In this document: positions 27,732-58,311 of the stretch, in pieces | Numbering within the stretch: the first letter of the stretch is position 1 | Layout of the letters: every line of letters starts with the position of its first letter | Origin: an uncultured Gammaproteobacteria bacterium | GTDB taxonomy: Bacteria; Patescibacteriota; Microgenomatia; UBA8517 | Direction of reading: 5' to 3' | DNA: 64,000 nucleotides | NCBI GenBank assembly: GCA_964599625.1 | Contig: CAZRGC010000003.1 | Location: forward strand, 97,759-161,758 | Program-made: the position numbers and the translations under genes | The notes under the pieces: generated by a model | Told to the model about the DNA's origin: nothing | What the model saw: the letters and a program-made list of their open reading frames with translations, nothing else | The model's database searches: none

Positions 27732-28511
27732 ATGTCTGGCCCCGATTCCCCTTTTCACTCAGACTCAAGTGTTTTCGAAACAAAAAACTCTCATATAGAC
27801 ACCCCTTTAGAGACAGTAATAAAAGCGGATTATTGGGCCAATTCACATTATCCTCAAATGTGGATAGCAAAACGCCTGGTTACAACGCACGCAGCTTTGG
27901 AACAGGTGCTTGCGGGAAAGTTGTTGTGGAGTGATTTTTCCACATCACAACTCCCCGACGTTTTTATTGAACCCCATATGAAAGAAAAGGCAAATAAAGC
28001 ACATGCTGCATATGGGCAACCTGCAATAATGGATCGTGATCTTAACAACCTGTGGAGGTCTGATGTAAGTGATGTATCAAATACACTTTGGAATTTGCTG
28101 CCCGACAAGGGAGACCCGTTGGAAATCCAAGACGTAACAATTGCCAAAGCCTTGAAAGACCCAAAAAATAAACAGTTTTTTGGGTCGTTGTTGGGTGTAT
28201 TGGCGGCAGAGAAGTCGGCCTTGGAAAGCCAGGAGTGCCTGGAGATATCAAAAGACCTGCGTGAGTCATTAAGAGACCTTCATCATAAAAAATTTGACCG
28301 CGGGTATAGTTTTTCTTTAAAGGAACAAGCTGACTTAAGGGTCAGATGGAACGCTATTTCAGACCGTCTCGAGTCTGTTTTGCAGCGGGAGCTTTCAAAG
28401 GCCAATCAAAAAGCAAAACTGATGCTTAACGATAGCCAATTGGAGTTTCTAACGCATCAAATCCATGTTGGTTCGAGAGTTGTGGCCAGTACGCCGATGG
28501 AGTCTTTTTGA
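27732..28511 (+). CDS. hypothetical protein inserted between rpsG and fusA
   Basis: 259-aa ORF, predicted helical, with no motif recognised. Sampled 60-nt lines are 50-57% G+C, above the flanking genes. Confidence 0.55.
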   Translation: MSGPDSPFHSDSSVFETKNSHIDTPLETVIKADYWANSHYPQMWIAKRLVTTHAALEQVLAGKLLWSDFSTSQLPDVFIEPHMKEKANKAHAAYGQPAIMDRDLNNLWRSDVSDVSNTLWNLLPDKGDPLEIQDVTIAKALKDPKNKQFFGSLLGVLAAEKSALESQECLEISKDLRESLRDLHHKKFDRGYSFSLKEQADLRVRWNAISDRLESVLQRELSKANQKAKLMLNDSQLEFLTHQIHVGSRVVASTPMESF

Positions 28512-30805: not shown

Positions 30806-31600
30806 ATGAATTTCTTTAAGAAAGTTGCTTCTAGTGTTTATTCCCCGGAGTTCTATTCCCAAATACCCAAAATGACACTTGGTTCTGTGTTGGGTTATTT
30901 TTTCTTGCTGCTTCTAGTGGTCGAACTTGTCATGTTTGGCAAAAGCATGCCGGAGTTTATGTTTGGTTTCTCAGGAAAGATAAAATCTACAATAAGCGAG
31001 GTTATCGACACTTATCCCAGTAATTTGGTTTTGACAATCAAAGATGGAGCGCTTTCCACCAATGTTAAGGAGCCTTACTACCTTATGGATAAAACCAACA
31101 ACAAGTTCGCGGTTATAGACACAAAAACTGCATACTCTGCCGATCAATTTAAAAAGTACAACGTACCGGTCTGGGTTACCAAAGATACTGTTTTTTACCA
31201 AGACAGCGACCAAATCAAGAGCAATAGTTTTGTAGAGATGAAAGATATGGTGGTAAACAAAGAACTTGTAAACAGTTTTTCTGCCAAAATATCTCCCTGG
31301 ATTCCATATTTTGGCCCTGTTGTTATGATTTTTGCACTCGTAACTCTTTACGCCCTCCAATCTTTCAGACTGGTTTATGGGTTTTTCCTTGCACTTTTAA
31401 TTTTGCTGGTTGCCAAAATGACCAAGAAAAGTCTGACGTATAAAGAATCTTACAAAGTAGGGATATTTGCCATGACACTACCCTTTATTTTAGAAGCGCT
31501 TAATACCTATATCGGTTGGAAGGCTTTTCCGTTCACTTTTACTATAATTGCACTTATTGTTGTTGGCGTAAATTTTGCAGGATCCAACTCGAAGAAGTAG
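30806..31600 (+). CDS. DUF1189-like polytopic membrane protein
   Basis: 264 aa. The N-terminus MNFFKKVASSVYSPEFYSQIPKMTLGSVLGYFFLLLLV follows the DUF1189 pattern. C-terminal TM helices are present. Confidence 0.45.
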   Translation: MNFFKKVASSVYSPEFYSQIPKMTLGSVLGYFFLLLLVVELVMFGKSMPEFMFGFSGKIKSTISEVIDTYPSNLVLTIKDGALSTNVKEPYYLMDKTNNKFAVIDTKTAYSADQFKKYNVPVWVTKDTVFYQDSDQIKSNSFVEMKDMVVNKELVNSFSAKISPWIPYFGPVVMIFALVTLYALQSFRLVYGFFLALLILLVAKMTKKSLTYKESYKVGIFAMTLPFILEALNTYIGWKAFPFTFTIIALIVVGVNFAGSNSKK

Positions 31601-32985: not shown

Positions 32986-33291
32986 ATGGCAATTAGACTA
33001 AGAGTCAAACTTAAAAGTTATGACCACAGGGTCTTAGATGAAGCAGCCGGTAAAATTATAGATACCGCGCTATCATCTGGTGCAAAAATTGTCGGTCCTA
33101 TTCCTCTCCCCACAAACCGCAGCGTAATGGCAATCAAAGAATCACCATTTACGGACAAAGACGCTCAGGAACACTTTGAAGTTCTAACCCACAAAAGACT
33201 TATTGATATTTTGGACCCAACCCCCAGAACTGTTGATTCTTTGGGCAACCTCGACCTCCCTGCGGGAGTTTCTATCGAGATTAAGATGTAA
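32986..33291 (+). CDS. rpsJ: 30S ribosomal protein S10
   Basis: 101 aa: [35 protein letters not shown]. Confidence 0.97.
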
Positions 33292-33318
33292 GGCCTCTTG
33301 TTCGACCAAACCCCATAG

Positions 33319-33346
33319 TTGGAATAACTGAACTACCTGATATAAT
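33319..33346 (+). promoter_or_regulatory. island promoter P-A (preceded by a CCCATAGTT box)
   Basis: CCCCATAGTTGGAA, with -35 TTGGAA (33319-33324), a 16-nt spacer, then TGA-TATAAT (33341-33346). Confidence 0.55.
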
Positions 33347-33398
33347 GCCAATGTCTGAATTAAGTTAGATCTTTGTACAATCAAAAAGGAATTTGACT

Positions 33399-33701
33399 AT
33401 GGATCCGATAAGAGTAGTTGTTGCAGTGGATGGCGACAAGGCAAAGTTCCACACCACTTTTCCGTTGGACGTGTATTTACCAGGACGACAAAAAAGGTCT
33501 GAAAAAGGCCAGGAGCTGGTAAACAAGTTGAAAGAGGTCAAGGGTATTAAAAACGAAGAGTTGGATATCTGGATCTACGAATATGAAATTTCGGCCAATA
33601 AGCTACACGCCTTTAAATGGAAGGATGAGGTCGCACCTGCTGTAGTTGAGGTTCTCAAGACCTTTTACAATCTCGGCACAGTCGAAATTGTATACGAATA
33701 A
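33399..33701 (+). CDS. island ORF A, orphan protein (100 aa); weak Nfu_N-like pattern
   Basis: ATG at 33399 with AAAGGAA 7 nt upstream. No family recognised. The EKGQELVNKLKEVKGI...WKDEVAPAVVEVL pattern is shared with ORF D. Confidence 0.6.
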   Translation: MDPIRVVVAVDGDKAKFHTTFPLDVYLPGRQKRSEKGQELVNKLKEVKGIKNEELDIWIYEYEISANKLHAFKWKDEVAPAVVEVLKTFYNLGTVEIVYE

Positions 33702-33735
33702 TACCCTGTCCGAATATCTGTTGTGTTAGTTTTTG

Positions 33736-33771
33736 CTCCGCTTTGTGGAAATTTCCCGGGCGGAGTTTTTT
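33736..33771 (+). terminator. island terminator, junction copy alpha
   Basis: CTCCGC (33736-33741) pairs with GCGGAG (33760-33765). The inner palindrome is GGAAATTTCC. T6 follows at 33766-33771. Confidence 0.8.
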
Positions 33772-33793
33772 GTGGCCAACATTAGTCCCATAG

Positions 33794-33823
33794 TTGGATT
33801 TATGGTGGTTAATCTGCTAGAAT
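33794..33823 (+). promoter_or_regulatory. island promoter P-B
   Basis: CCCATAGTTGGAT, with -35 TTGGAT (33794-33799), an 18-nt spacer, then TGC-TAGAAT (33818-33823). Confidence 0.55.
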
Positions 33824-33866
33824 CCGCTAGCACGTTGAATTATTACAGAACGTCCTTGGAGGAACA

Positions 33867-35015
33867 ATGATTCTTGGACTGAAATTAACTGTCGAAAACG
33901 ACGATATTGTCGACATTGGCGGAGATTTGTACGTCAAAAACTCCAAAGCCATGAAGCGTCTTCACAGGGAGCTTCGCTACCTGGGATACCAAATCGACAA
34001 CTTGCGGCACGATAAATACCGCTTGGACAAGGGAGCCACCCCGCGCGAAATGGAAAAAGGTGGTTGGTCGCTTTGGTTTGCCAAGTTACCCAATATCAGA
34101 CGTGGTGTCTGTGGAAGCTGTGGAGCAACCATTTCCACTCTCGGCATTCAGTCACACGGCCACAAATGCGAGAGGTGCGGCGAAGTGACCTACTGGGAAA
34201 TGGTGGAAGGATCAGTAATCCGGTTCGTCTTTTTGCAAAAAGAGGGCCGTGGAATGTGGGATCCCGAGCTTAAGATGAAAGTGCACCATTGGGATACGCG
34301 TGAAGGGCTTTTATATCTTTACCCGGAAGCCTTGGAAGGTGGCCTTTCGACTGTGACGGGAGATACAGCACGGCAGTACTTGGGCAATAACCACGAAAAG
34401 TGGAATGTAGTCACGATCGATGGCCAAAAAATTATCGTGATCAAGTACCCCAAGCAGTGGCGGCGCGATACGGCTGTTATCGAACCTTATGAGATTTACG
34501 GTCATCAGTGGAATCACAAGATCGTCAAAATCTACAAAGGTAAACATTACAGTGACTGGGACCGGCTCCCTGTTCCCGAGACATTTTCTATCTACGAAAC
34601 CTGGCACTGGGACAAGCTTGTGGCTTCGCCAACATTGCACAGGCGTGTATTGCAGGCTGTTCACAACACCGATGACAAGGGTTGGCACTACCAAGACGGT
34701 CGTCCCTGGTTTAGAGAAGGAAGCTGGAAGGGCATGGCAAAGTTTATTCGCCATTTTACAGCCCTTGATGCTGATGCCTTTGACCGAGCCTGGCCACGTT
34801 TCAGAAACGACGGTCCCGGCGGGATCGACGACTTGGCACACTTCTGTCACCCCAAAGCCATCACTCGTGATGAGCCAAACATAGGTAATGTTCTTGTTGC
34901 CATGGGGAAACGCATGGAAAATAAGTCTCTCACGCGCGATGAGATCGAAGCAGCCAAACGCGGCTTGAGCGATCCATTGACGGGTGATTTTTTACGTTCC
35001 CTGCGTAAGCGTTAG
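33867..35015 (+). CDS. island ORF B, orphan Trp-rich protein with a CxxC..CxxC zinc ribbon (382 aa)
   Basis: GGAGG lies 4 nt upstream of the ATG. It contains CGSCGATISTLGIQSHGHKCERCG and many Trp residues (WHW, WDxxW). No family recognised. Confidence 0.7.
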   Translation: MILGLKLTVENDDIVDIGGDLYVKNSKAMKRLHRELRYLGYQIDNLRHDKYRLDKGATPREMEKGGWSLWFAKLPNIRRGVCGSCGATISTLGIQSHGHKCERCGEVTYWEMVEGSVIRFVFLQKEGRGMWDPELKMKVHHWDTREGLLYLYPEALEGGLSTVTGDTARQYLGNNHEKWNVVTIDGQKIIVIKYPKQWRRDTAVIEPYEIYGHQWNHKIVKIYKGKHYSDWDRLPVPETFSIYETWHWDKLVASPTLHRRVLQAVHNTDDKGWHYQDGRPWFREGSWKGMAKFIRHFTALDADAFDRAWPRFRNDGPGGIDDLAHFCHPKAITRDEPNIGNVLVAMGKRMENKSLTRDEIEAAKRGLSDPLTGDFLRSLRKR

Positions 35016-35028
35016 TTTTGGAGTCTCA

Positions 35029-35064
35029 CTCCGCCTTGTGGAAATTTCCCGGGCGGAGTTTTTT
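35029..35064 (+). terminator. island terminator, junction copy beta
   Basis: CTCCGC (35029-35034) pairs with GCGGAG (35053-35058). T6 follows at 35059-35064. It is near-identical to copies alpha and gamma. Confidence 0.8.
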
Positions 35065-35087
35065 GTGGCTAAAATAAGCCCCATAGT

Positions 35088-35116
35088 TTGACATAACTTT
35101 GAACCTTTGATATATT
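35088..35116 (+). promoter_or_regulatory. island promoter P-C
   Basis: CCCATAGTTTGACA, with -35 TTGACA (35088-35093), a 17-nt spacer, then TGA-TATATT (35111-35116). Confidence 0.65.
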
Positions 35117-35156
35117 CACAAGGTTTATTTGCACATTATGGTTAAAAGGAGAGACT

Positions 35157-35660
35157 ATGGGAATTACCCATGCAGAGGGTGTTGACTTGCAAGAGTGGGC
35201 GAATGCTCACAAACCGGATGATGACTTGATTTACAGGGATGGTTATTGGCATCAAATCATCTTTGTCCGGGATCGCTTGCCACAGCCGCTTTTTGGCTCA
35301 TACGAAGAGTACAAAGCCAATCCGGTACGCGTGGTGGGTGATCATACAAGCAAATCAGTACTCCTTCCTGTTTACAGTATCAAATTTGCTCCTCTCGAAA
35401 TTCGGATGCGTTACAACTTTTACGACTGGAAAGTGAGTGTGGTATCTCAAGTTCCCATCAGGTCGAACTTTTACCCGTTCCTTTTTAGAGATGAAGCTGT
35501 GCACCCGGTTTATTTTGAGGGTTTTACCAATGACTGGGTTTTTGGCTCCTACTCTGCCGACAACACCAAATTTTCTGTTGAAATTAGCAACGAACACATG
35601 TTGTTCGCTTTCATGGCTATTTTAGCGGGTGATTTGGGCTTGGGAGGCAATAAGAAGTAG
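35157..35660 (+). CDS. island ORF C, orphan aromatic-rich protein (167 aa)
   Basis: AAGGAGAG lies 3 nt upstream of the ATG. No TM segment or signal peptide, and no family recognised. Confidence 0.65.
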   Translation: MGITHAEGVDLQEWANAHKPDDDLIYRDGYWHQIIFVRDRLPQPLFGSYEEYKANPVRVVGDHTSKSVLLPVYSIKFAPLEIRMRYNFYDWKVSVVSQVPIRSNFYPFLFRDEAVHPVYFEGFTNDWVFGSYSADNTKFSVEISNEHMLFAFMAILAGDLGLGGNKK

Positions 35661-35672
35661 TTTGGAGCTCAA

Positions 35673-35708
35673 CTCCGCTTTGTGGAAATTTCCCGAGCGG
35701 AGTTTTTT
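35673..35708 (+). terminator. island terminator, junction copy gamma
   Basis: CTCCGC (35673-35678) pairs with GCGGAG (35697-35702). T6 follows at 35703-35708. Confidence 0.8.
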
Positions 35709-35731
35709 GTGGCAAAAACAAGTCCCATAGT

Positions 35732-35761
35732 TTGACAAAGCCTCGAATATGGTTTTATAAT
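35732..35761 (+). promoter_or_regulatory. island promoter P-D
   Basis: CCCATAGTTTGACA, with -35 TTGACA (35732-35737), an 18-nt spacer, then TATAAT (35756-35761). Confidence 0.65.
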
Positions 35762-35805
35762 CATCTGTTGTCAGAAATTTGTACTTTACAAAAAATAGCT
35801 TGGCA

Positions 35806-35846
35806 GGCAGCTTTTTACCCGTAAAATTTATGGTTGAAAAGCTGCC
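35806..35846 (+). promoter_or_regulatory. 10-bp perfect stem in the ~155-nt 5' UTR of ORF D
   Basis: GGCAGCTTTT (35806-35815) pairs with AAAAGCTGCC (35837-35846), with a 21-nt loop. Confidence 0.5.
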
Positions 35847-35922
35847 TACGGATGATAGTGAGGCGTATGGGAGCACTCCTAAAACAAAAACCAAATAAAA
35901 ATTAGAAAGTAACAGGAGCAAA

Positions 35923-36300
35923 ATGTCTCAATCTCAAAAGCGCGTTTCCGAACGCGAGGTACCCGAAGTCAATCCCAACAAGAGGTTTTTCCCAGACTTT
36001 CCTCTTTGCAACGACACGGCTACCCACACAAGCTATTCATACAGGAACAAGAAGGATGTCGGTGAAAAGGGTGTCGCCTTGGTAGAGGCTGTTTTGGCAA
36101 TCCACGGCGTGATCGATCTGACGATCTCAAAGAATGAACTTCGGGTCGTCAAACAACCTGCCCACACCTGGGAAGAGGTTACACCTTTGATCCACAATGC
36201 TTTCAGGCATGTTTACGGCGACGATATCAAATTTATCGGAGAAAACAAGGCTATTTTGGCCTACAGACGTCTCCGAGTTGCCATGAACGTGGCTAAGTAA
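35923..36300 (+). CDS. island ORF D, orphan protein (125 aa); weak Nfu_N-like pattern
   Basis: AGGAG lies 4 nt upstream of the ATG. EKGVALVEAVLAIHGVIDLTISKNELRVVKQPAHTWEEVTPLI resembles the Nfu/NifU N-terminal domain text and ORF A. Confidence 0.65.
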   Translation: MSQSQKRVSEREVPEVNPNKRFFPDFPLCNDTATHTSYSYRNKKDVGEKGVALVEAVLAIHGVIDLTISKNELRVVKQPAHTWEEVTPLIHNAFRHVYGDDIKFIGENKAILAYRRLRVAMNVAK

Positions 36301-36315
36301 CATCAATGGCCTTCC

Positions 36316-36347
36316 GGCCCAAATCTCACAAGGTTTGGGCCTTTTTT
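36316..36347 (+). terminator. strong rho-independent terminator closing the island
   Basis: GGCCCAAATCT (36316-36326) pairs with AGGTTTGGGCC (36331-36341), loop CACA. T6 follows, and the TTTTTTGTGG tail is shared with the junction repeats. Confidence 0.85.
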
Positions 36348-36364
36348 GTGGGTTTGACCCGTGC

Positions 36365-36393
36365 TTGCGGCGTTTTGGTATATCTGATATAAT
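36365..36393 (+). promoter_or_regulatory. promoter re-starting transcription toward rplC
   Basis: TTGCGG (36365-36370), a 17-nt spacer, then TGA-TATAAT (36388-36393). Confidence 0.45.
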
Positions 36394-36465
36394 TCCGAAT
36401 AACAAATATGGTGGTTACAATGTTTGCTCAACCACGCTAAGTTAGTCTTTGGCAGATGCCTCACT

Positions 36466-44710: not shown

Positions 44711-45118
44711 ATGAGCAAATTACCAAAAGTTGTAACAAAGTCAAAAAAGAGAATCGGTAGAGGTTTTGGAACCGGTAAAGGTGGACACACCACAAACCGC
44801 GGACAGAAGGGGCAAAAATCCCGTGGTTCCATTGGAGTTCTTTTCGAAGGAATGAAAGTCAAGAAGTCACTTCTTAAAAGACTTCCATTGCAGCGCGGAA
44901 AAGGAAAGTTCAAAGCCAACGGAAAACCGGTTATTGTTACCCTTACCGACCTGGATATTCTCCCAACCGGTAGTGAAATTACTTTAGATCTTTTGATCAA
45001 AGAGAACTTGGTCGACCCTATTTTAGGCCGAAAATTCGGAGTAAAAGTCTTGGGAGGAGGAAAATCTACCAAGAAATTTACTTTCAAAGTCCCAACTTCC
45101 AAATCTGTAGCCAAATAA
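44711..45118 (+). CDS. rplO: 50S ribosomal protein L15
   Basis: KRIGRGFGTGKGGHTTNRGQKGQKSR. It starts 2 nt after the rpsE stop, so there is no rpmD between them. Confidence 0.94.
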   Translation: MSKLPKVVTKSKKRIGRGFGTGKGGHTTNRGQKGQKSRGSIGVLFEGMKVKKSLLKRLPLQRGKGKFKANGKPVIVTLTDLDILPTGSEITLDLLIKENLVDPILGRKFGVKVLGGGKSTKKFTFKVPTSKSVAK

Positions 45119-45122
45119 ATAT

Positions 45123-45599
45123 ATGACAGAAAGTCCAACACCTGTTGGAGAAGAAGCAGAAAAACTACAAAAAACATCACTTTTAGTGATGTATTCACGC
45201 CAAGATATGGCAGATACAGCCCTTGAGGTAATAAAAGAACTTAGGGAAGCAGGTCTTAATGTCATCGATATAAACGATAAGATTGCAGATGGCTCGTGGG
45301 TGGGTGAGTCGGATAAAATATTGGAAAATACCCCAGCAGTTCTTGTTATTCCATCAAAATCCATAAAAGAAGATGGTTTGGTTAAGGACGCAGTTTACCG
45401 TGCCGACATGCTAAGGGTAGAAAAAAGAAAGAGAATCGTTCCAATATTTTTTCAGGCTAATGCAAATGTTTCGATAGGAGGCCTTGGCAGCCTTGCCGGA
45501 ATAAATTGGGACGGTGAGACAGAAGGGATTCAAAATTTTGATAAGACTGCAGCTTTCGGCCACCTCAAAACTTTTGTCGCCCAAAATACTAATTCATAA
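45123..45599 (+). CDS. TIR-like domain protein (tentative)
   Basis: SLLVMYSRQDMADTALEVIKELREAGLNVIDINDKIADGSW..AVLVIPSKSI..RIVPIFF follows the bacterial TIR_2 layout (hSYSxxD, G..W, hhhhS, hhPhhh). The conserved catalytic Glu is not evident. Confidence 0.4.
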   Translation: MTESPTPVGEEAEKLQKTSLLVMYSRQDMADTALEVIKELREAGLNVIDINDKIADGSWVGESDKILENTPAVLVIPSKSIKEDGLVKDAVYRADMLRVEKRKRIVPIFFQANANVSIGGLGSLAGINWDGETEGIQNFDKTAAFGHLKTFVAQNTNS

Positions 45600-45601
45600 A
45601 C

Positions 45602-46030
45602 ATGGAAACAATTAAACCTAACGGGTTTTTGACAAGCTTCGAGTTTGAGGGATTAAAACTTCCTGTGGAATACGTGAGAACAGATCAAGTTTGTGAGGGT
45701 GTAACTTGCGACGTTTACAAATTTTGGGGAGACAAAAAGAAGGACTTGGCGATAATAACAATACAACCTGACGCCAAAACACCACCCCAAAAAGTTTTGT
45801 CGGGAGAAAAAACAATCGAAGGATATATTTCGGGATCGGGTGTATTTACAGTGAAAAAGGACGACGGGGGTGAAGAAAGAATATTGGTAGAAGATAAGCC
45901 CACAGAGTACTTTTCAATTCAAGTAAACGTAGGGGACACAATGCAATGGAAAGCTTCGGAAGATTCTATTCTTACTGTTTTTGAAGTTTGCTACCCCCCA
46001 TACGAAGACGGCAGGTTTCAAAATCTTTAG
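45602..46030 (+). CDS. cupin-fold protein (tentative)
   Basis: 142 aa, beta-rich. GYISGSGVFTV...VNVGDTMQW...LTVFEVCYPP resembles the two cupin motifs. Confidence 0.4.
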   Translation: METIKPNGFLTSFEFEGLKLPVEYVRTDQVCEGVTCDVYKFWGDKKKDLAIITIQPDAKTPPQKVLSGEKTIEGYISGSGVFTVKKDDGGEERILVEDKPTEYFSIQVNVGDTMQWKASEDSILTVFEVCYPPYEDGRFQNL

Positions 46031-46045
46031 TGTTATACTTCCAAT

Positions 46046-46489
46046 ATGTCCCGCGATAGATTCAGACTTCTTGCAGCGTGTTACTTATTGCCAATAAAGG
46101 GGAAGAAAGTTCTTTTGTCCCGCCGTTTTAACACTGGCTGGAAGGATGGTTGGTATTCCTTGATTGCAGGGCATTTGGATGGCAACGAATCTGTAAGCGA
46201 CTCAATGATTCGTGAAGCGAAAGAGGAGTCTGGTATTGAAATTGCCAAAAAAGACTTGGTTCCTTTAACCTCCGTTCACCACAAAACAGAAGACTCAGAA
46301 TATGTGGACTTTTTCTTCGCAGTAAAAAAGTGGAAAGGTGAACCGCAAATCAAGGAGCCCAACAAGTGTGACGATATGTCCTGGTTTCCAATAGACAAAC
46401 TTCCGGAAAAATTACTTCCACACGTTAAGCAAATAATTCAAAACCTGGACTCCAATGTTCCTTTTTTTGAACACGGATGGAACAAATAA
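46046..46489 (+). CDS. NUDIX hydrolase
   Basis: Complete Nudix box GHLDGNESVSDSMIREAKEESGI (Gx5Ex7REx2EExGU). Confidence 0.85.
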   Translation: MSRDRFRLLAACYLLPIKGKKVLLSRRFNTGWKDGWYSLIAGHLDGNESVSDSMIREAKEESGIEIAKKDLVPLTSVHHKTEDSEYVDFFFAVKKWKGEPQIKEPNKCDDMSWFPIDKLPEKLLPHVKQIIQNLDSNVPFFEHGWNK

Positions 46490-46504: not shown

Positions 46505-47476
46505 GTGGCTCAAAAAGAAGACGACTCCTACCAAAAATATCTTGAAGACAAACACTTGGCATTTGCAACGCCCGAAAGTCTGGTATCGTCTATGGTAAAA
46601 AAGGCAACGGGATCAGAACCCTTTTCTGTCGAAAAGTTGATTCAGGGTGAAGTGAACGAGGTTTATGATGTGGAGGCTGGTGGTCAAAATGTAATAGTAA
46701 GAATTTCCCGACAAGGACCGGAAAATTTTGAAACCGAAGAAACTGTAATACGCCTCGCTTTGCAAGCAGGTGTACCCGCTCCCAAAGTTCTTCTTTTGGA
46801 ATCTGCCTCAACCGAAACCGAAGAATTGACCTTTTGTATAGAAGAAAAGATTGAAGGAAAGCCATTGAAAGAATTACTAAAAACTCTGGACGCAGAAACT
46901 CTCAAGGCAATTCTGATTCAGTCGGGCGAGATATTATCCCGTATCCATTCATTGGAAACGGACAGATTTGGGCCCTTGGATAGGCAGGTCTTTTATCCTT
47001 CATGGACAGAATATTTATTCAGGAAGGAAGAAAATAAACGTGAGATAATTGAGTATGGCTCTAAAGTGGGACTCCTGCCCGGTGTTATAGATAAAGCCTT
47101 TTCTATACAAAGGAAAAACTCAGGAATTTTGGAAATACAAATCCCCTATATTCTGCACGGCGATTTTAGTCCCAAACACATTCTCACGAATGGAAAAACA
47201 GTCACTGGAATAATAGATTTTGAAGACGCCAAAGGAGGCGATCCGGTGAGAGATATTGCTTGGATGAACTTTTTTTATGGCGATTCGGTAAATCTTGAGT
47301 GGTTTTTAGAAGGATACGGAAGGGAAAAAACAGGAATGGACTTTGATATAAAAATGAGACTTTTGAAAGTTAACTTGGGACTGGACCTGTTGGATTATTA
47401 CGGATCAGAAGGTAATATTTCAGGACTTAAATACTCGAAACGTAAATTGGAGGAAGAGATGGAATTTTTCAAATGA
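46505..47476 (+). CDS. APH/choline-kinase-family phosphotransferase (GTG start)
   Basis: Kinase-like N-lobe (VYDVEAGGQNVIVRI), catalytic loop ILHGDFSPKHIL, and metal-binding IIDFEDA. Confidence 0.75.
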   Translation: MAQKEDDSYQKYLEDKHLAFATPESLVSSMVKKATGSEPFSVEKLIQGEVNEVYDVEAGGQNVIVRISRQGPENFETEETVIRLALQAGVPAPKVLLLESASTETEELTFCIEEKIEGKPLKELLKTLDAETLKAILIQSGEILSRIHSLETDRFGPLDRQVFYPSWTEYLFRKEENKREIIEYGSKVGLLPGVIDKAFSIQRKNSGILEIQIPYILHGDFSPKHILTNGKTVTGIIDFEDAKGGDPVRDIAWMNFFYGDSVNLEWFLEGYGREKTGMDFDIKMRLLKVNLGLDLLDYYGSEGNISGLKYSKRKLEEEMEFFK

Positions 47477-47483
47477 CCCGACA

Positions 47484-48065
47484 ATGAATTCAAACACAAT
47501 AGTAATTTTGGGAACCCTGATTGGTGCAATTGGCTCGATCTTTTATCTTGTCGACGTTGTTAAGGGAAAAATAAAACCCAATCGGGTTTCTTTTATTCTT
47601 TGGTCACTCCCACCATTGATATCTGCATACGCAAATATTAAAAGTGGCGGTGGAATTGAATCTTTAATGACTTTTAGTGTTGGTTTTTTTCCACTGCTTA
47701 TATTTTTGGCAACTTTTCTCAACAAAAAATCCGTTTGGAAACTTACCAAATTTGATTTTGTTTGCGGCGCACTTTCACTTTTGGGATTCCTGCTTTGGCA
47801 GGTAACAAAAGAAGGATATTTGGCAATAACTTTTAGTATAGTTTCCGATTTTTTGGCTGGAATTCCCACCATAACAAAAACTTACAAACACCCAGAAACG
47901 GAACTGGCTTGGCCCTGGTTGATGCCGGTCTTGGGAGAAATTCTTACACTTTCCACACTTGGGGATATTACTTATCTCAACTCAGGTTTCATGATTTACG
48001 TAACTTTGTATAACACAGTCATTTTTCTTTTGGCGCAGTATAAAATCGGAAAGATATGGAAATAA
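47484..48065 (+). CDS. polytopic membrane protein, unknown function
   Basis: 193 aa with about six hydrophobic segments. Confidence 0.55.
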   Translation: MNSNTIVILGTLIGAIGSIFYLVDVVKGKIKPNRVSFILWSLPPLISAYANIKSGGGIESLMTFSVGFFPLLIFLATFLNKKSVWKLTKFDFVCGALSLLGFLLWQVTKEGYLAITFSIVSDFLAGIPTITKTYKHPETELAWPWLMPVLGEILTLSTLGDITYLNSGFMIYVTLYNTVIFLLAQYKIGKIWK

Positions 48066-48562
48066 TTAAACTACCTGTTTCAGAGTGGAAAAGTTATAAA
48101 GCAATAAGGCTTCGAGCTCTCAAGGAAGACCCTCAGGCATTTGGAGCCTCATACGACGATGCGGTCAAATTTGACGAGTCCGAATGGAGACGCAGGCTTG
48201 AAAATGCCGAAAATTCGGACAGAAGTTGGTTATGGTTTGCACAAGAAAACCAGAAAATTGTAGGCCTTATTGGGGCATATATGGAAAAAGGTGCAACAAA
48301 TGAGGCAACTATAGTTTCTGTTTTTGTTCCCAAGGAAGAAAGAGGGAAAGGAATATCGAGCCTTTTGATGGATAAGATGATATCCGAACTTTCAGCTAAA
48401 CCATATCTCAAAAAAATTAATTTGACTGTGAACAAAGACCAAGTAGCGGCCGTAAATCTTTATACAAAGTTTGGTTTCGTAAAAGTCGGTGAGCAAAATT
48501 TTAAAATGGGAAACGGTCAGAAGGCTGTGGAATTTGTTATGGAAAGACAAATTAGCACTTAA
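48056..48562 (+). CDS. GNAT family N-acetyltransferase
   Basis: Motif A VFVPKEERGKGISSLLM, and a C-terminal NLYTKFGF. Confidence 0.8.
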   Translation: MEIIKLPVSEWKSYKAIRLRALKEDPQAFGASYDDAVKFDESEWRRRLENAENSDRSWLWFAQENQKIVGLIGAYMEKGATNEATIVSVFVPKEERGKGISSLLMDKMISELSAKPYLKKINLTVNKDQVAAVNLYTKFGFVKVGEQNFKMGNGQKAVEFVMERQIST

Positions 48563-48565
48563 GGT

Positions 48566-48595
48566 CTGTCATTGATAACTTAGTTGCGATATAAT
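48566..48595 (+). promoter_or_regulatory. possible promoter upstream of secY
   Basis: CTGTCA (48566-48571), an 18-nt spacer, then TATAAT (48590-48595). The -35 is weak. Confidence 0.3.
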
Positions 48596-48606: not shown

Positions 48607-49890
48607 ATGTTTGAACAAATTTTGAATTTCTTCAAGAAAGCTGTAACCACACCTTCTATTAGGAAGAAGCTTCTGGTTACCGCGGTTATCCTTGTTGTAT
48701 TTCGTTTGGCAGGACATATCCCGGCCGCAGGAATAGATCGCAATACACTCACCGCACTCTTTTTGGGAAGCCCTCTTCTTTCGCTTTTGGATGTGTTTTC
48801 CGGAGGAACTCTTGCAAACTTTTCTATTTTGGCCTTAGGGCTTAACCCTTACATCAATGCATCCATTATTTTGCAGCTTTTGGGTTATGTAGTTCCATCG
48901 TTGGAAGCCTTGCAAAAAGAGGGTGAGTACGGCCAGGAGAAAATAAATCAGTACACAAGGCTTTTGACAGTGCCTCTTGCGGCTCTCCAGGCGTTTGGTA
49001 TGTACGCACTCCTTAAGGGGCAAAATGTAATTTCCAATCTTGCTCCTTTGGAACTTTTGGCTTTGGTGATTACGATGACAGCCGGAACTGTTTTCTCGGT
49101 TTGGTTGGGAGAGCTGATTAGCGAGTATGGATTTAAAAATGGAGTTTCCCTGCTAATTTTTACAGGAATAGTAGCAAGACTTCCTGTTGTTTTGGGACAG
49201 TCGGCCAGTGTTGTACAGTCGCAGGATATTCTGAAAGTAATTCTCTTCCTGGTTGTAGCAGCTTTGGTTGTGGGAATGATTATTTTCATAAGTGAAGCTT
49301 CCCGCAAAATCCCAATACACTATGCAAAAAGACGCACCGACACAGGTTTGGGGGCAACTTCCTATTTACCACTAAGACTCAATCAAGCAGGTGTGATTCC
49401 TATCATATTCGCGGTTTCATTGGTTTTGATACCTTCGCTTATGGGTCAGTTTTTGGCCAACATTCCAAATGCTGCTGTTGCGAATGCTGCCAGATTCATA
49501 AGTACTGCATTTAATCCCCAGTCTGTTGTCTATAACCTTACATATTTTGTTTTAGTGTTTGGTTTCACTTATTTTTATACAGCGGTTATTTTCAATCCGG
49601 ATAAAATTTCCGAAGATTTACAAAAAGGTGGAGGTTTTATTCCGGGAATCAGACCCGGAAAAGAAACATCCAAATATTTGTCTTTCGTTTTGTCTCGTTT
49701 GACAGTGGTTGGAGGAGTGTTTTTGGGTTTGGTTGCTGTCATGCCTTCTTTCTTTCAAAATTCGATTGGTGCCAGTAATTTAGCAATTGGAGGAACTGGG
49801 GTGTTGATTGTTGTTTCTGTGGCTTTGGAAATTGTCAGAGAAATGGAAGGTGAGTTGGTAATGGGTAAGTATGAAGGTTTTCTAAGATGA
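48607..49890 (+). CDS. secY: preprotein translocase subunit SecY
   Basis: 427 aa, 10-TM pattern, with [16 protein letters not shown] and [13 protein letters not shown]. Confidence 0.96.
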
Positions 49891-57180: not shown

Positions 57181-57251
57181 CGGGGTGTAGTTTACCGGTA
57201 GAATGGGCGCATGGGGTGCGTCCGGACTGAGTTCAATTCTCAGCACCCCGA
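57181..57251 (+). tRNA. tRNA-Pro (anticodon GGG), no encoded CCA
   Basis: Hand-folded cloverleaf. The acceptor is CGGGGTG/CACCCCG and U8 is present. The D-loop carries GG. The anticodon stem is GGCGC/GCGTC with loop AU-GGG-GU. The T arm is CTGAG-TTCAATT-CTCAG. The discriminator is A. Confidence 0.75.
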
Positions 57252-57754
57252 CCGAATGGTGGGTTTAGTTTATAAAGGTCGGCAAGGGTTTTTTTGACGC
57301 TTTCAAAACCGATATTTTTAAGATTTGGAATATCTTTGATATCCACCCAAACCAGTTCTGATACGTCGTCACTTGCTTCTATCTCTCCACCCGTAATCTC
57401 CACAATAAACTGAAATACTAATATTGGTTTGTCCGCATCACCATATGTGTCGGGATAATTCCCGAGAAGTCTGATTACTTTAACATCAAGCCCTGTTTCT
57501 TCTTTTGTTTCCCGAATAGCAGCCTCTTCAGCTGACTCTCCCGGGTTTATAAATCCTCCAATCACATCATATGTTCCTTTGAATGGTTCGTTTTTTCTTA
57601 TTGCCAGAAGTACTTTATTGTTTTTTATGGGAATTGCTGAGGCGCCGGGTACAGGGTCTTGGTAAATACTAAACCCGCAGTCCAAACAAATGATTTTGGT
57701 TTCTTTGAGGTCCAGTTTCCGACTTCCGCAAACAGGGCAAAATATATATTTCAT
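57233..57754 (-). CDS. NUDIX hydrolase with N-terminal zinc ribbon
   Basis: MKYIFCPVCGSRKL..CLDCG, and Nudix box GGFINPGESAEEAAIRETKEETGL. The start at 57754 forms an ATGA overlap with the upstream gene's stop. The 3' end overlaps tRNA-Pro by 19 nt on the opposite strand. Confidence 0.8.
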   Translation of the reverse strand: MKYIFCPVCGSRKLDLKETKIICLDCGFSIYQDPVPGASAIPIKNNKVLLAIRKNEPFKGTYDVIGGFINPGESAEEAAIRETKEETGLDVKVIRLLGNYPDTYGDADKPILVFQFIVEITGGEIEASDDVSELVWVDIKDIPNLKNIGFESVKKTLADLYKLNPPFGRGAEN

Positions 57755-58311
57755 TTTTCTACCTTCGAATTTTCGAACATTGTCTTTAGTGTCTTCCAAT
57801 TCTCTGGTAACGGTGTGCCATTTTGTGATAATTCCAAAGCAAAAAGAATTATTTTTTCGTCTCCATCTTGCCAATCCTCAATTCTTCTGTCGGGATAATA
57901 ATAACCATTCGGTGGTATTTGGATGTCTTTGTTTACCTTGTAATCAGTAAAATACTGAGGTATTTTGTCGGGAAACATGTGTGCAATTCCCGAAAAGGCG
58001 TCCATAACAGAAGCGGCATATTTTGAACCGTTTTCGGAAACATCAGGGCCGTCTTCCACATGTCTTTGTAAATTTTTTATATGCATGTGCAACACTTTTG
58101 TTTCAAATACTTTCTTTTTTCCATCCTTGGTTACCGGCAGATAAACCTGACTTCCACCTTGGTCCAAGATGTAATCATGTGACACTTTGTCCAATACACT
58201 TCTGGCTTTTTCCCTGAAGTCGTTGCCAAGACGTTCTGTTAAGTGCAAATTATTTTCGGCAAGTTTTCCTGTGTGTTGTCTCAATTCTATTTTGTCGTTT
58301 GTTGAGTCCAT
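57751..58311 (-). CDS. hypothetical protein
   Basis: 186-aa ORF, translationally coupled (ATGA) to the Nudix gene. No motif recognised. Confidence 0.55.
   Translation of the reverse strand: MDSTNDKIELRQHTGKLAENNLHLTERLGNDFREKARSVLDKVSHDYILDQGGSQVYLPVTKDGKKKVFETKVLHMHIKNLQRHVEDGPDVSENGSKYAASVMDAFSGIAHMFPDKIPQYFTDYKVNKDIQIPPNGYYYPDRRIEDWQDGDEKIILFALELSQNGTPLPENWKTLKTMFENSKVEK

Follow-up and report, generated by a model that had tools for sequence, protein, structure and literature searches.

A putative accessory-gene slot between rplO and secY in the spc operon of a Microgenomates-type CPR bacterium, with an APH-family kinase as its most constant occupant

The junction between rplO and secY in the spc operon of this lineage of ultra-small CPR bacteria of the Microgenomates type appears, on balance, to be a long-lived slot for accessory genes. 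The six genes that fill it in the stretch of DNA analyzed here (64,000 nucleotides, hereafter the window) would then be separate items of cargo and not a co-evolved resistance module. As the evidence stands, a normally rigid operon tolerates in these genomes a variable slot of long standing, in which a kinase is resident and the other genes are transient; hence a functional link should not be deduced from the location of these genes among ribosomal ones. No earlier description of CPR genes inserted between rplO and secY was found in the literature.

Six genes separate rplO from secY

A preliminary description had placed an APH-type kinase and a GNAT acetyltransferase inside a ribosomal-protein operon. 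The coordinates of the open reading frames (ORFs), the Pfam assignments and the gene order on the + strand all agreed with this placement: genes for S5 and L15 lie upstream of the insert, and those for SecY-Adk-Map-IF1-S13-S11-S4-RpoA lie downstream of it. The kinase, membrane protein and GNAT genes were confirmed as three + strand ORFs, but they make up only part of the insert, because genes for a TIR-domain protein, a 142-aa protein (u142) and a NUDIX hydrolase precede the kinase gene, giving six in all. The features are as follows.

44711..45118, + strand: rplO (ribosomal protein L15), ORF, upstream boundary of the insert
45123..45599, + strand: TIR-domain protein, 158 aa, first inserted gene (PF13676 TIR_2)
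45602..46030, + strand: u142, an unknown soluble 142-aa protein, ORF with no family match
46046..46489, + strand: NUDIX hydrolase, 147 aa, directly upstream of the kinase gene (PF00293)
46505..47476, + strand: APH-family small-molecule kinase, 323 aa, GTG start (PF01636, AF2 model)
47156..47179, + strand: kinase catalytic loop HGDFSPKH, aa 218–225, with D220 as the predicted catalytic residue and H225 in place of the Brenner-motif Asn
47210..47230, + strand: kinase metal-binding segment IIDFEDA, aa 236–242, including Asp238 (from alignment and conservation)
47484..48065, + strand: membrane protein, 193 aa, predicted seven-helix PQ-loop/SWEET (3+1+3) fold, putative small-solute carrier
48056..48562, + strand: GNAT acetyltransferase, 168 aa, 10-nt overlap with the preceding gene (PF00583)
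48341..48370, + strand: GNAT acetyl-CoA motif RGKGISSLLM, aa 96–105, with R96 and G97 invariant
48607..49890, + strand: secY, ORF, downstream boundary of the insert, followed by adk, map, infA, rpsM, rpsK, rpsD and rpoA

On both sides of the insert the gene order is that of the canonical spc operon (rpsE-rpmD-rplO-secY-adk-map-infA). The window L15 shared 63–85% identity with the L15 genes of related loci (PF00828 calls; tblastn), and secY was 71–89% identical to its counterparts in the related loci L001, L003 and L005, which were recognized by PF00344. In the canonical operon the non-ribosomal enzymes Adk and Map also ride along, much as the accessory genes do here. The window differs from it in two respects. 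Since rplO starts 2 nt after the S5 gene, there is no gene for L30 (rpmD), whose loss is a reported trait of the CPR, and rplO and secY are parted by 3.5 kb of accessory genes, the content of which varies among relatives.

Within the insert, the intergenic gaps measured from -10 to +15 nt, and 44 nt separated the GNAT gene from secY. A search of the insert's intergenic gaps for terminator-like sites on the + strand found none. Because the genes are co-directional and closely spaced, with no convincing terminator, they would be read through from the ribosomal-protein promoter, in which case their expression would be constitutive and coupled to growth; judged from this spacing, co-transcription of the insert with the ribosomal operon is probable. 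One weak promoter-like site, CTGTCA-18-TATAAT, was present in the gaps at 48566-48595, just before secY, and could uncouple the downstream genes. An Rfam scan of the whole window detected no RNA family, and thus no leader or riboswitch that might hint at a ligand. The GC content of the insert equaled that of its flanks, and the only repeats found around the insert were short chance repeats, none of them bounding it, so nothing indicated that the insert had arrived recently as a mobile element. The translation supercluster of the window contains three further, unrelated insertions, at S7/EF-G, at EF-G/EF-Tu (a DUF1189 protein) and at S10/L3 (about 3.1 kb).

The kinase resembles the antibiotic kinases of the APH superfamily

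The kinase scored 81.7 bits against the APH family (PF01636), well above the Pfam gathering cut-off of 23.2. All three motifs named in the preliminary description were found, HGDFSPKH and IIDFEDA in the kinase and RGKGISSLLM in the GNAT protein. H218, D220, H225 and D238 were invariant among 34 kinase homologues. Measured against the Brenner motif H-x-D-x-x-x-x-N (as defined in PMC3691515), the kinase loop ends in His225 rather than Asn and still qualifies the protein as a member of the family. The AF2 model (pLDDT 93.8) shows the two lobes of the kinase fold and a helical substrate subdomain. When this model was compared with known structures by Foldseek, the top matches were APH(4)-Ia and APH(2'')-IVa (TM 0.7–0.8, 19–21% identity, probability 1.0), and a putative fructosamine-3-kinase appeared at rank 22 (TM 0.63).

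A profile built from the 34 sequences was also used to search the PDB. At E<=1e-3, every match with a named substrate was an aminoglycoside or macrolide kinase: APH(2'')-Id/IVa (2e-18), APH(4)-Ia (8e-17), APH(2'')-Ib/IIa/IIIa, APH(7'') and macrolide kinases. Two further matches had been deposited merely as APH-family or predicted APH proteins, and no choline, fructosamine, methylthioribose or homoserine kinase was among the matches at this threshold. PF03881 gave only a faint match in precomputed annotations, a thiamine kinase model gave E 0.07, and protein-kinase models gave at best a marginal match, to Bud32 or PrkT. By profile and by predicted fold, then, the kinase lies closest, among characterized proteins, to APH(2'')-IVa and APH(4)-Ia rather than to choline or fructosamine kinases. 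No previous description of the kinase was found in the literature.

These relationships are distant. Against the curated NCBIfam/AMRFinder models of aminoglycoside O-phosphotransferases, the kinase stayed below every cut-off, with 39.5 bits against 725 for APH(4)-Ia, 31 against 600 for APH(2'')-Ie/IVa, 32.7 against 205 for APH(3') and 18.8 against 640 for APH(7''), scores that are roughly 6- to 20-fold lower than the thresholds.

APH(2'')-IVa/Id, an enterococcal aminoglycoside 2''-O-phosphotransferase, was the top match in the PDB profile search and aligned structurally with a Foldseek TM of about 0.7. Its loop in APH(2'')-Id, HNDFSSDH, follows the same unusual pattern as that of the kinase, HxDFSxxH, in which the Brenner Asn is replaced by His, and its IIDFGDA aligns with IIDFEDA as part of a common segment IIDFxDAxxxDPxxD. 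The two proteins are nevertheless only about 20% identical; APH(2'')-Id has Asp at loop position +4, where the kinase has Lys, and the kinase has an additional N-terminal helix, which is conserved and contains an invariant His17. Unlike a mobile resistance gene, moreover, the kinase gene is chromosomal and inherited vertically within its CPR clade. APH(4)-Ia (Hph, hygromycin B 4-O-kinase) was the best single-sequence match in the PDB (E 4e-14, query residues 41–307) and the best structural match (TM 0.71–0.81, 19–20% identity). In the beta-3 strand, where VIVRIS aligns with YVLRVN, both proteins carry Arg and not Lys, and VIDWSEA of APH(4)-Ia aligns with IIDFEDA. In its loop, HADFGSNN (D198, N202, N203), Asn202 and Asn203 correspond to Lys224 and His225 of the kinase.

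APH(4), APH(2'') and APH(3') have been described as having a negatively charged pocket (PMC3691515). Sequence proxies gave no indication of a conserved acidic specificity pocket in the kinase; at the level of single residues, the pocket comparison with APH(4)-Ia covers D198, N202 and N203 and was based on PDB entry titles and a HMMER alignment. By the same kind of proxy, the basic residues K224 and K243 are conserved beside the active site, together with D246 and D250, and the loop position of K224 is basic in 91% of the kinase family. The window kinase has a pI of 4.9, at the lower end of the range of the family (4.9–9.4). The conserved loop Lys and this spread of pI therefore suggest a poor fit to the acidic pocket of APH(4), APH(2'') and APH(3').

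As a working model, the kinase would belong to the antibiotic-kinase branch of the APH superfamily and use ATP or GTP for O-phosphorylation. It would do so with an HxDFSxxH loop of the APH(2'') type, with Asp220 as the catalytic residue and His225 and Asp238 as metal ligands, and its acceptor would most likely be a hydroxyl group of an exogenous small molecule.

The kinase is retained next to secY while its neighbors change

The kinase was found upstream of secY in seven lineages. Identity to the window kinase was 69% in L001/L002/L009, 55% in L003, 54% in L035, 53% in L069, 48% in L117 and 47% in L005. In a simple neighbor-joining tree of 24 sequences, calculated without support values, the secY-adjacent kinases formed one clade, in which a nested sub-lineage, L039, had relocated. 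Homologues of at most 46% identity that fall outside this clade, and all of those with at most 35%, were located elsewhere in the genome. We infer that a single ancestral kinase gene entered the gap and has been inherited in place since, making the kinase the constant resident of the slot. Around it, a phosphohydrolase (NUDIX, HAD or HD), the 7-TM carrier, the RimI/NAT-like GNAT, the TIR protein and u142 would have been gained and lost, as would the genes for AbiEii toxins that occupy the same L15-SecY gap in two relatives (L003 and L035).

Among the related genomes, GNAT, carrier and phosphohydrolase come and go. A kinase-GNAT partnership, implied by the title of the preliminary description, was not conserved: each of the two occurs upstream of secY without the other. 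The GNAT gene lay directly upstream of secY in four lineages (the window, L001, L005 and L119). It was absent from L003, L035, L069 and L117, all of which have a secY-adjacent kinase, and in L119 it was present without a kinase. Considering that the gap also holds TIR and AbiEii genes and that three other insertions interrupt the translation cluster, the operon location is weak evidence for what any of these genes does. Retention of the kinase by secY down to 47% identity could, on the other hand, mean that co-expression with the translation and secretion apparatus has been selected, rather than reflect inertia.

The membrane protein and a possible salvage function

The protein encoded between the two enzymes, previously described as having six transmembrane segments, models as a 7-TM protein with the 3+1+3 seven-helix arrangement of the PQ-loop/SWEET fold, that is, of the SWEET/cystinosin type. 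No Pfam family matched it at E<=0.1 (neither PQ-loop nor MtN3_slv), and no PDB sequence matched it at E<=10. With 7–15% identity, it has no detectable sequence similarity to PQ-loop/SWEET/cystinosin carriers, and it differs from them in belonging to a bacterial family of proteins of about 200 aa that are about 60% identical across phyla and have no described function.

A carrier of this kind beside a kinase would suit an uptake-and-trap salvage module in an auxotrophic cell. The carrier would let in a neutral metabolite, for example a sugar, an amino sugar or a riboside; the kinase would trap it by phosphorylation, and the phosphohydrolase and GNAT would process related phospho- or amino-compounds; placement in the operon would provide growth-coupled expression, as for adk downstream of secY. 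Precedents exist for both components: kinases of the APH fold include methylthioribose, fructosamine and N-acetylhexosamine kinases, and Pnu-type carriers work through trapping by a kinase. No characterized metabolite kinase is closely related to the window kinase, however, and we consider the salvage reading unlikely. The carrier gene directly follows the kinase gene in the window, L001 and L117, but it is present only in these among the seven secY-adjacent lineages, and of about 99 kinase loci only 3 have it beside the kinase, the carrier family occurring otherwise in unrelated contexts.

The neighborhood of the kinase gave mixed results in this regard. Directly upstream of the kinase, four of the seven lineages carry a phosphohydrolase gene, and three unrelated folds fill this slot (NUDIX in the window, a HAD hydrolase in L001, and in L005 a protein with an HD domain). 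Across the wider family, NUDIX genes adjoined the kinase at 9 of 99 loci, against an expectation of about 2 from their density in the farther flanks, an enrichment of about four-fold among loci that are not phylogenetically independent and in genomes where NUDIX genes are common. The upstream phosphohydrolases and this enrichment hint at a real functional coupling rather than independent cargo. No partner was conserved throughout the kinase family, and no dominant one emerged among the immediate neighbors at about 70 non-redundant kinase loci: the commonest family, NUDIX, accounted for 8 of the 70, and AAA_18, HAD, methyltransferase, PF10706 and glyoxalase genes occurred two to three times each. 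Fusions of the APH family to AAA_18 P-loop kinases (P0073 and P0075) and the recurrence of AAA_18 and HAD genes would also suit salvage, as would locus L008, where an AAA_18-APH fusion has a distant carrier homologue 3 kb away and the cluster also includes inositol monophosphatases and an MFS transporter.

The GNAT protein and the question of antibiotic resistance

The GNAT protein scored 62.8 bits against PF00583 (gathering cut-off 20.7) and carries acetyl-CoA motif A (R/Q-x-x-G-x-G/A), by which it belongs to the GNAT superfamily; R96 and G97 were invariant and G99 nearly so among 29 homologues. Its best curated family was RimI (TIGR01575), with 51.9 bits against a cut-off of 86.4, which also ranked first by the number of members matched (29 of 29 homologues). 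In a PDB profile search the leading matches were GNATs with unknown substrates (PA1377, in first place, and 2I79), N-terminal protein acetyltransferases were prominent (NAA50, archaeal Ard1-type enzymes and RimI, which share the R-x-x-G-x-G acetyl-CoA motif), and AAC(6') ranked much lower. AAC(6') models matched only a few homologues, weakly, and the AAC(3)-I model gave 22.6 bits against a cut-off of 200. By these sequence comparisons, the GNAT protein is nearest to RimI and the N-terminal protein acetyltransferases, not to AACs. No tsaB/tsaD neighborhood was seen at the window GNAT.

The preliminary description had cautiously suggested a role for the two enzymes in protection against ribosome-targeting compounds, adding that the motifs do not reveal the substrate. 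In its fullest form, the kinase and GNAT would be an APH and AAC pair that inactivates ribosome-targeting antibiotics of the aminoglycoside type, their place in the operon would couple protection to the synthesis of ribosomes, and the modified drug might be exported by the membrane protein. This reading is quite improbable. The kinase is indeed closest to APH(2'')-IVa and APH(4)-Ia by sequence and fold, with none of the metabolite kinases named above among its profile matches at E<=1e-3, and the window enzyme is acidic. Two kinase homologues adjoin ANT(2'')-like PF10706 genes and two others adjoin genes of the glyoxalase/bleomycin-resistance fold, and divergent resistance-like genes, aminoglycoside-modifying ones among them, are reportedly abundant in CPR genomes (PMC8651080). 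Against it stand the low identity of about 20%, the loss of pairing in relatives, the spread of pI in the family, the loop Lys in place of Asp of APH(2'')-Id and Asn202 of APH(4)-Ia, and kinase neighbors that lean to NUDIX, HAD, pyrophosphatase and P-loop kinase genes. Comparison with curated resistance-gene models placed neither enzyme near a threshold (31–39.5 bits for the kinase where 205–725 are demanded, and the AAC(3)-I score for the GNAT), and the APH and AAC scores alike were far below the AMR cut-offs. The clade comparison proposed in that description came out differently for the two proteins: the kinase fell away from choline and fructosamine kinases, and the GNAT leaned toward the RimI/NAT-like enzymes. 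What survives of the proposed role is the kinase in the antibiotic-kinase branch, for which alone a link to ribosome-directed drugs is possible.

Bolder versions, in which the kinase is a vertically inherited antibiotic kinase related to APH(2'') and APH(4) and wired into the ribosomal operon, or else forms a salvage unit with the PQ-loop carrier, are also distinctly doubtful. If the former were true, drug inactivation would scale with ribosome production, an intrinsic ribosome-protection arrangement not described before; if the kinase acts on ribosome drugs, the CPR bacteria, themselves poorly understood, would offer a case of intrinsic resistance regulated jointly with its target, and the APH(2'') and APH(4) enzymes of the clinic might have a deep relative in the kinase. 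The latter would be about as novel, combining an APH-fold kinase, a PQ-loop carrier and an exchangeable phosphohydrolase in an auxotrophic episymbiont. The locus in any case draws attention to two uncharacterized families, a Microgenomates subfamily of APH proteins and a 7-TM protein of predicted PQ-loop fold that is widespread and highly conserved in bacteria.

Modification of the translation machinery, with the GNAT as a RimI/RimJ/RimL-like N-terminal acetyltransferase of ribosomal proteins and the kinase acting on a protein or ribosome-associated target, would account for the presence of both genes in the operon and would agree with the RimI and archaeal/eukaryotic N-terminal acetyltransferase matches and with the position of the GNAT gene before secY in four lineages, but it is very unlikely, given that the RimI score falls short of its cut-off, that GNAT homologues of 50–57% identity occur in unrelated contexts, and that the kinase has the small-molecule architecture of APH enzymes, with a helical substrate subdomain and marginal protein-kinase matches.

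The TIR, u142 and NUDIX proteins

The favored reading of the rplO-secY junction as a slot for separate cargo genes extends to the three genes upstream of the kinase. The TIR protein (36.9 bits against PF13676 TIR_2, cut-off 28) was confined to the window and L001, where it is 51% identical, and a search of PDB sequences found no relative of it. PADLOC models matched neither the TIR protein nor the kinase, GNAT, u142 or carrier; the insert gave a single match, between the NUDIX protein and the candidate model PDC-S07 (35 bits). The PADLOC search thus yielded no assignment to a known anti-phage defence system, such as a Thoeris-type TIR system.

No Pfam, NCBIfam or PADLOC model and no PDB sequence matched u142. 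Its family comprised 263 cluster representatives at E<=1e-3, and some members carry the u142 domain as the C-terminal part of a fusion with a GNAT, SLOG/YAcAr or HbpS-like domain or with a serine hydrolase. The NUDIX protein scored 65.9 bits against PF00293 and fell below the cut-off of every NCBIfam equivalog; its closest PDB relatives were plant Nudix hydrolase 1 and a geranyl-diphosphate phosphohydrolase.

Gene content of the L15–SecY insert

The genes around the insert are ordered S3...S5, L15, insert, SecY, Adk, Map, IF1, S13, S11, S4, RpoA, L17, L13 and S9. Since ribosomal or SecY genes lie on both flanks, the embedding in a ribosomal-protein operon, proposed in a preliminary description of the sequence, is real. 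The kinase, membrane protein and GNAT that it placed in 46505–48562 are three plus-strand ORFs, its three motifs were each located in the kinase or the GNAT, and both family assignments held (PF01636, 81.7 bits versus 23.2; PF00583, 62.8 versus 20.7). The three-gene extent was too small, as three further genes precede the kinase.

Features of the insert and its boundaries (window coordinates)
44711–45118: L15, 5′ boundary of the insert
45123–45599, upstream of the kinase: TIR_2 protein (Pfam)
45602–46030, upstream of the kinase: ORF for a 142-aa protein without a family name (u142)
46046–46489, upstream of the kinase: NUDIX hydrolase (Pfam)
46505–47476, plus strand: kinase ORF, 323 aa, GTG start, APH family (Pfam PF01636)
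47156–47179: HGDFSPKH motif, kinase aa 218–225
47210–47230: IIDFEDA motif, kinase aa 236–242
47484–48065, plus strand: membrane protein ORF, 193 aa
48056–48562, plus strand: GNAT ORF, 168 aa (Pfam PF00583)
48341–48370: RGKGISSLLM motif, GNAT aa 96–105
48607–49890: SecY, 3′ boundary of the insert

Gaps between genes of the insert measure −10 to +15 nt, and secY follows after 44 nt. No terminator-like site was found on the plus strand in any intergenic gap, and a single promoter-like site lies immediately ahead of secY. Neither the GC content of the insert nor its repeats point to recent transfer. The insert most likely occupies a slot for accessory genes within the spc operon, transcribed by read-through together with the ribosomal genes, and its resident is most likely an uncharacterised APH(2″)/APH(4)-like putative small-molecule kinase. 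We found no earlier description of this arrangement in the literature; it places known kinds of enzyme in an unusual yet explicable location, and is a modest advance.

Relatives and active site of the kinase

Searching the PDB with the kinase sequence alone returned hygromycin B 4-O-kinase APH(4)-Ia as the best match (E 4e-14, residues 41–307), followed by APH(2″)-Id. A profile built from an alignment of 34 family members (A1) matched APH(2″)-Id/IVa (2e-18) and APH(4)-Ia (8e-17), and also retrieved APH(2″)-Ib/IIa/IIIa, APH(7″)-Ia and macrolide 2′-phosphotransferases; no choline, fructosamine, methylthioribose or homoserine kinase appeared at E ≤ 1e-3. With an AF2 model of the kinase (pLDDT 93.8, pTM 0.90), the top Foldseek matches were APH(4)-Ia and APH(2″)-IVa (TM 0.7–0.8, 19–21% identity), and a putative fructosamine-3-kinase ranked no higher than 22. 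The preliminary description would have failed had the kinase fallen into a known non-antibiotic clade; by these relatives, it does not. It belongs to the antibiotic-kinase branch, and the kinship is remote: curated resistance models scored far below their cut-offs (APH(4)-Ia, 39.5 bits against 725; APH(2″)-Ie/IVa, 31 against 600; APH(3′), 32.7 against 205). Divergent resistance-like genes have already been reported to abound in CPR genomes (PMC8651080).

The position of the Brenner-motif Asn in the catalytic loop is an invariant His in the 34-member alignment. This variant is shared with APH(2″)-Id, which reads HNDFSSDH...IIDFGDAAISDPDNDF, compared with HGDFSPKH...IIDFEDAKGGDPVRD in the window kinase. 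Four residues after the catalytic Asp, the window kinase has a Lys (91% basic across the family), whereas APH(2″)-Id has an Asp and APH(4)-Ia has Asn202. In a review, the specificity pocket of APH(4), APH(2″) and APH(3′) is described as negatively charged (PMC3691515). Judged from sequence, the loop Lys and the spread of family pI (4.9–9.4) may sit poorly with a polycationic substrate.

The GNAT

RimI was the top curated family for the GNAT (51.9 bits, under the cut-off of 86.4), and its model was matched by all 29 of the 29 GNAT homologues; the AAC(3)-I model gave 22.6 bits against a cut-off of 200. When the family profile was compared with the PDB, PA1377 and 2I79, GNATs whose substrate is not known, ranked first, followed by NAA50, archaeal N-terminal acetyltransferases, NAA10 and RimI, with AAC(6′) far lower. 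Because of these scores and this ranking, the GNAT leans to the protein N-terminal and RimI-like side, short of RimI membership, and it does not resemble an AAC.

Comparative context of the secY gap

The window genes were mapped onto approximately 100 loci with kinase relatives, obtained from genome and metagenome collections and exact-protein look-ups. The kinase lies 5′ of secY in seven lineages.

Order of genes in the L15–secY gap of the seven lineages (L numbers, loci in related genomes; the retrieved sequence extends to L15 at just five loci: the window, L001, L003, L005 and L069)
Window, kinase identity 100%: L15–secY, with TIR, u142, NUDIX, APH, membrane protein, GNAT
L001/L002/L009, 69%: TIR, u142, HAD (replacing NUDIX), APH, membrane protein, GNAT
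L003, 55%: unknowns and AbiEii, APH
L035, 54%: APH, AbiEii
L069, 53%: unknowns, APH, 98-aa ORF
L117/L118, 48%: NUDIX, APH, membrane protein
L005, 47%: unknown, HD, APH, GNAT

In a neighbour-joining tree, the secY-adjacent kinases formed one clade, within which a nested sub-lineage (L039) sits elsewhere; homologues outside this clade, at ≤46% identity, and all more distant ones were located away from secY. Because the kinase is kept within one clade while the GNAT and other content varies, the pattern is most simply explained by a single ancestral insertion, with the kinase as an old resident of the gap and the other genes turning over. A GNAT orthologue (61% identity) lies directly 5′ of secY in L119 with no kinase nearby, others (57% and 50%) occupy unrelated genomic places, and several kinase loci lack a GNAT, so that kinase and GNAT are not a conserved pair. 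AbiEii, a type IV toxin-antitoxin nucleotidyltransferase, is encoded 5′ of the kinase at L003:3678–4352 and between the kinase and secY at L035:2267–2941.

The translation gene cluster of the window carries three further non-ribosomal insertions.

Further insertions (window coordinates)
27732–28511: 259-aa unknown protein, between S7 and EF-G, str cluster
30806–31600: DUF1189 protein, between EF-G and EF-Tu, str cluster
33292–36455: insertion of approximately 3.1 kb, four ORFs, between S10 (32986–33291) and L3 (36456–37265)

These insertions, and the presence of TIR and AbiEii genes in the L15–SecY gap, argue that operon position is weak evidence of ribosome-related function in this lineage, and the placement therefore carries little weight. 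The protective role suggested in the preliminary description is partly supported: the kinase's place in the antibiotic-kinase branch stands; the GNAT is unlike an AAC, and the two enzymes are not kept as a pair. The S10–L3 insertion is probably a foreign island within the S10 operon, since its GC content is 0.469 (34001–36000) versus a background of about 0.41; its ORFs had no firm Pfam match, and a 382-aa protein (33867–35015) has paired CxxC motifs. DUF1189 also neighbours two kinase homologues on their 5′ side.

Kinase neighbours and a possible salvage module

A less likely alternative to the accessory slot is an uptake-and-trap salvage module, in which the membrane protein would import a metabolite, the kinase would phosphorylate it, and the phosphohydrolase and GNAT would process related compounds. 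Hints of a tie to phospho-metabolite chemistry come from a NUDIX-box ORF adjoining the kinase in 9 of 99 loci (approximately 2 expected from farther-flank density; several loci are related, not independent), from AAA_18 P-loop kinase domains fused to some family members, and from the slot directly 5′ of the kinase in the secY-adjacent clade, which holds one of three phosphohydrolase folds, NUDIX (window 46046–46489), HAD (L001:5380–5979) or HD (L005:5354–5980), an alternation that may be non-orthologous displacement. These hints favour the salvage alternative and are too weak to displace the simpler accessory-slot picture. No dominant partner family was found among the immediate neighbours of approximately 70 non-redundant kinase loci: the commonest 5′ neighbour was NUDIX (8/70), and on the 3′ side only AAA_18 and methyltransferase genes occurred here and there, along with two PF10706 (ANT(2″)-like) and two glyoxalase-fold genes.

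L008:1–13500 looks like a small-molecule metabolic cluster. Besides a 499-aa AAA_18–APH fusion kinase (32% identical to the window kinase), it encodes several P-loop kinases, two inositol monophosphatases, Ldh_2, DAO and PNPOx; an MFS transporter and a distant homologue of the membrane protein are also present.

The membrane protein (47484–48065) had no Pfam match and no PDB sequence match. Its 7-TM PQ-loop-fold family (P0078–P0197), for which there is no Pfam model, has invariant motifs such as KGKxKPNRVSxxLW and PTxxKxYxxPxTExAWPW. The family is large (672 matches) and unusually conserved: members from phyla as distant as those of Anaerolineales, Bacteroidales and Amesbacteria (CPR) are approximately 60% identical, making this a strikingly conserved bacterial membrane protein without a described function. 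Other homologues occur in unrelated gene settings, next to beta-lactamase-fold, hydrolase and glyoxalase genes in an Anaerolineales genome, and next to Ldh_2, His_Phos_1 and HIT genes in an Amesbacteria genome.

The u142 family comprises 263 cluster representatives. In some members (P0246, P0260, P0281, P0314), its domain is C-terminal in fusions with GNAT, SLOG/YAcAr, HbpS-like or serine hydrolase domains, a pattern that suggests a small-ligand-binding or accessory enzymatic role.

Host genome

Almost all window genes lie on one strand, at a GC content of about 0.41. L15 starts 2 nt after S5, a gap that leaves L30 missing; loss of L30 is a reported CPR trait. Source-named kinase homologues came from Candidatus Woesebacteria, Amesbacteria, Levybacteria, Daviesbacteria and other Patescibacteria. 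These features assign the window to a CPR genome of Microgenomates type. The public records of its closest relatives, L001/L009 (CAZRJH010000002.1) and L020, whose ribosomal operons share 85–95% protein identity with the CPR-type window, are labelled "uncultured Gammaproteobacteria bacterium", probably wrongly. NUDIX genes appear frequent in the window genome; a second one (57233–57874, minus strand) runs into the end of tRNA-Pro(GGG) (57181–57253, plus strand), and the start of this NUDIX ORF is probably over-extended.
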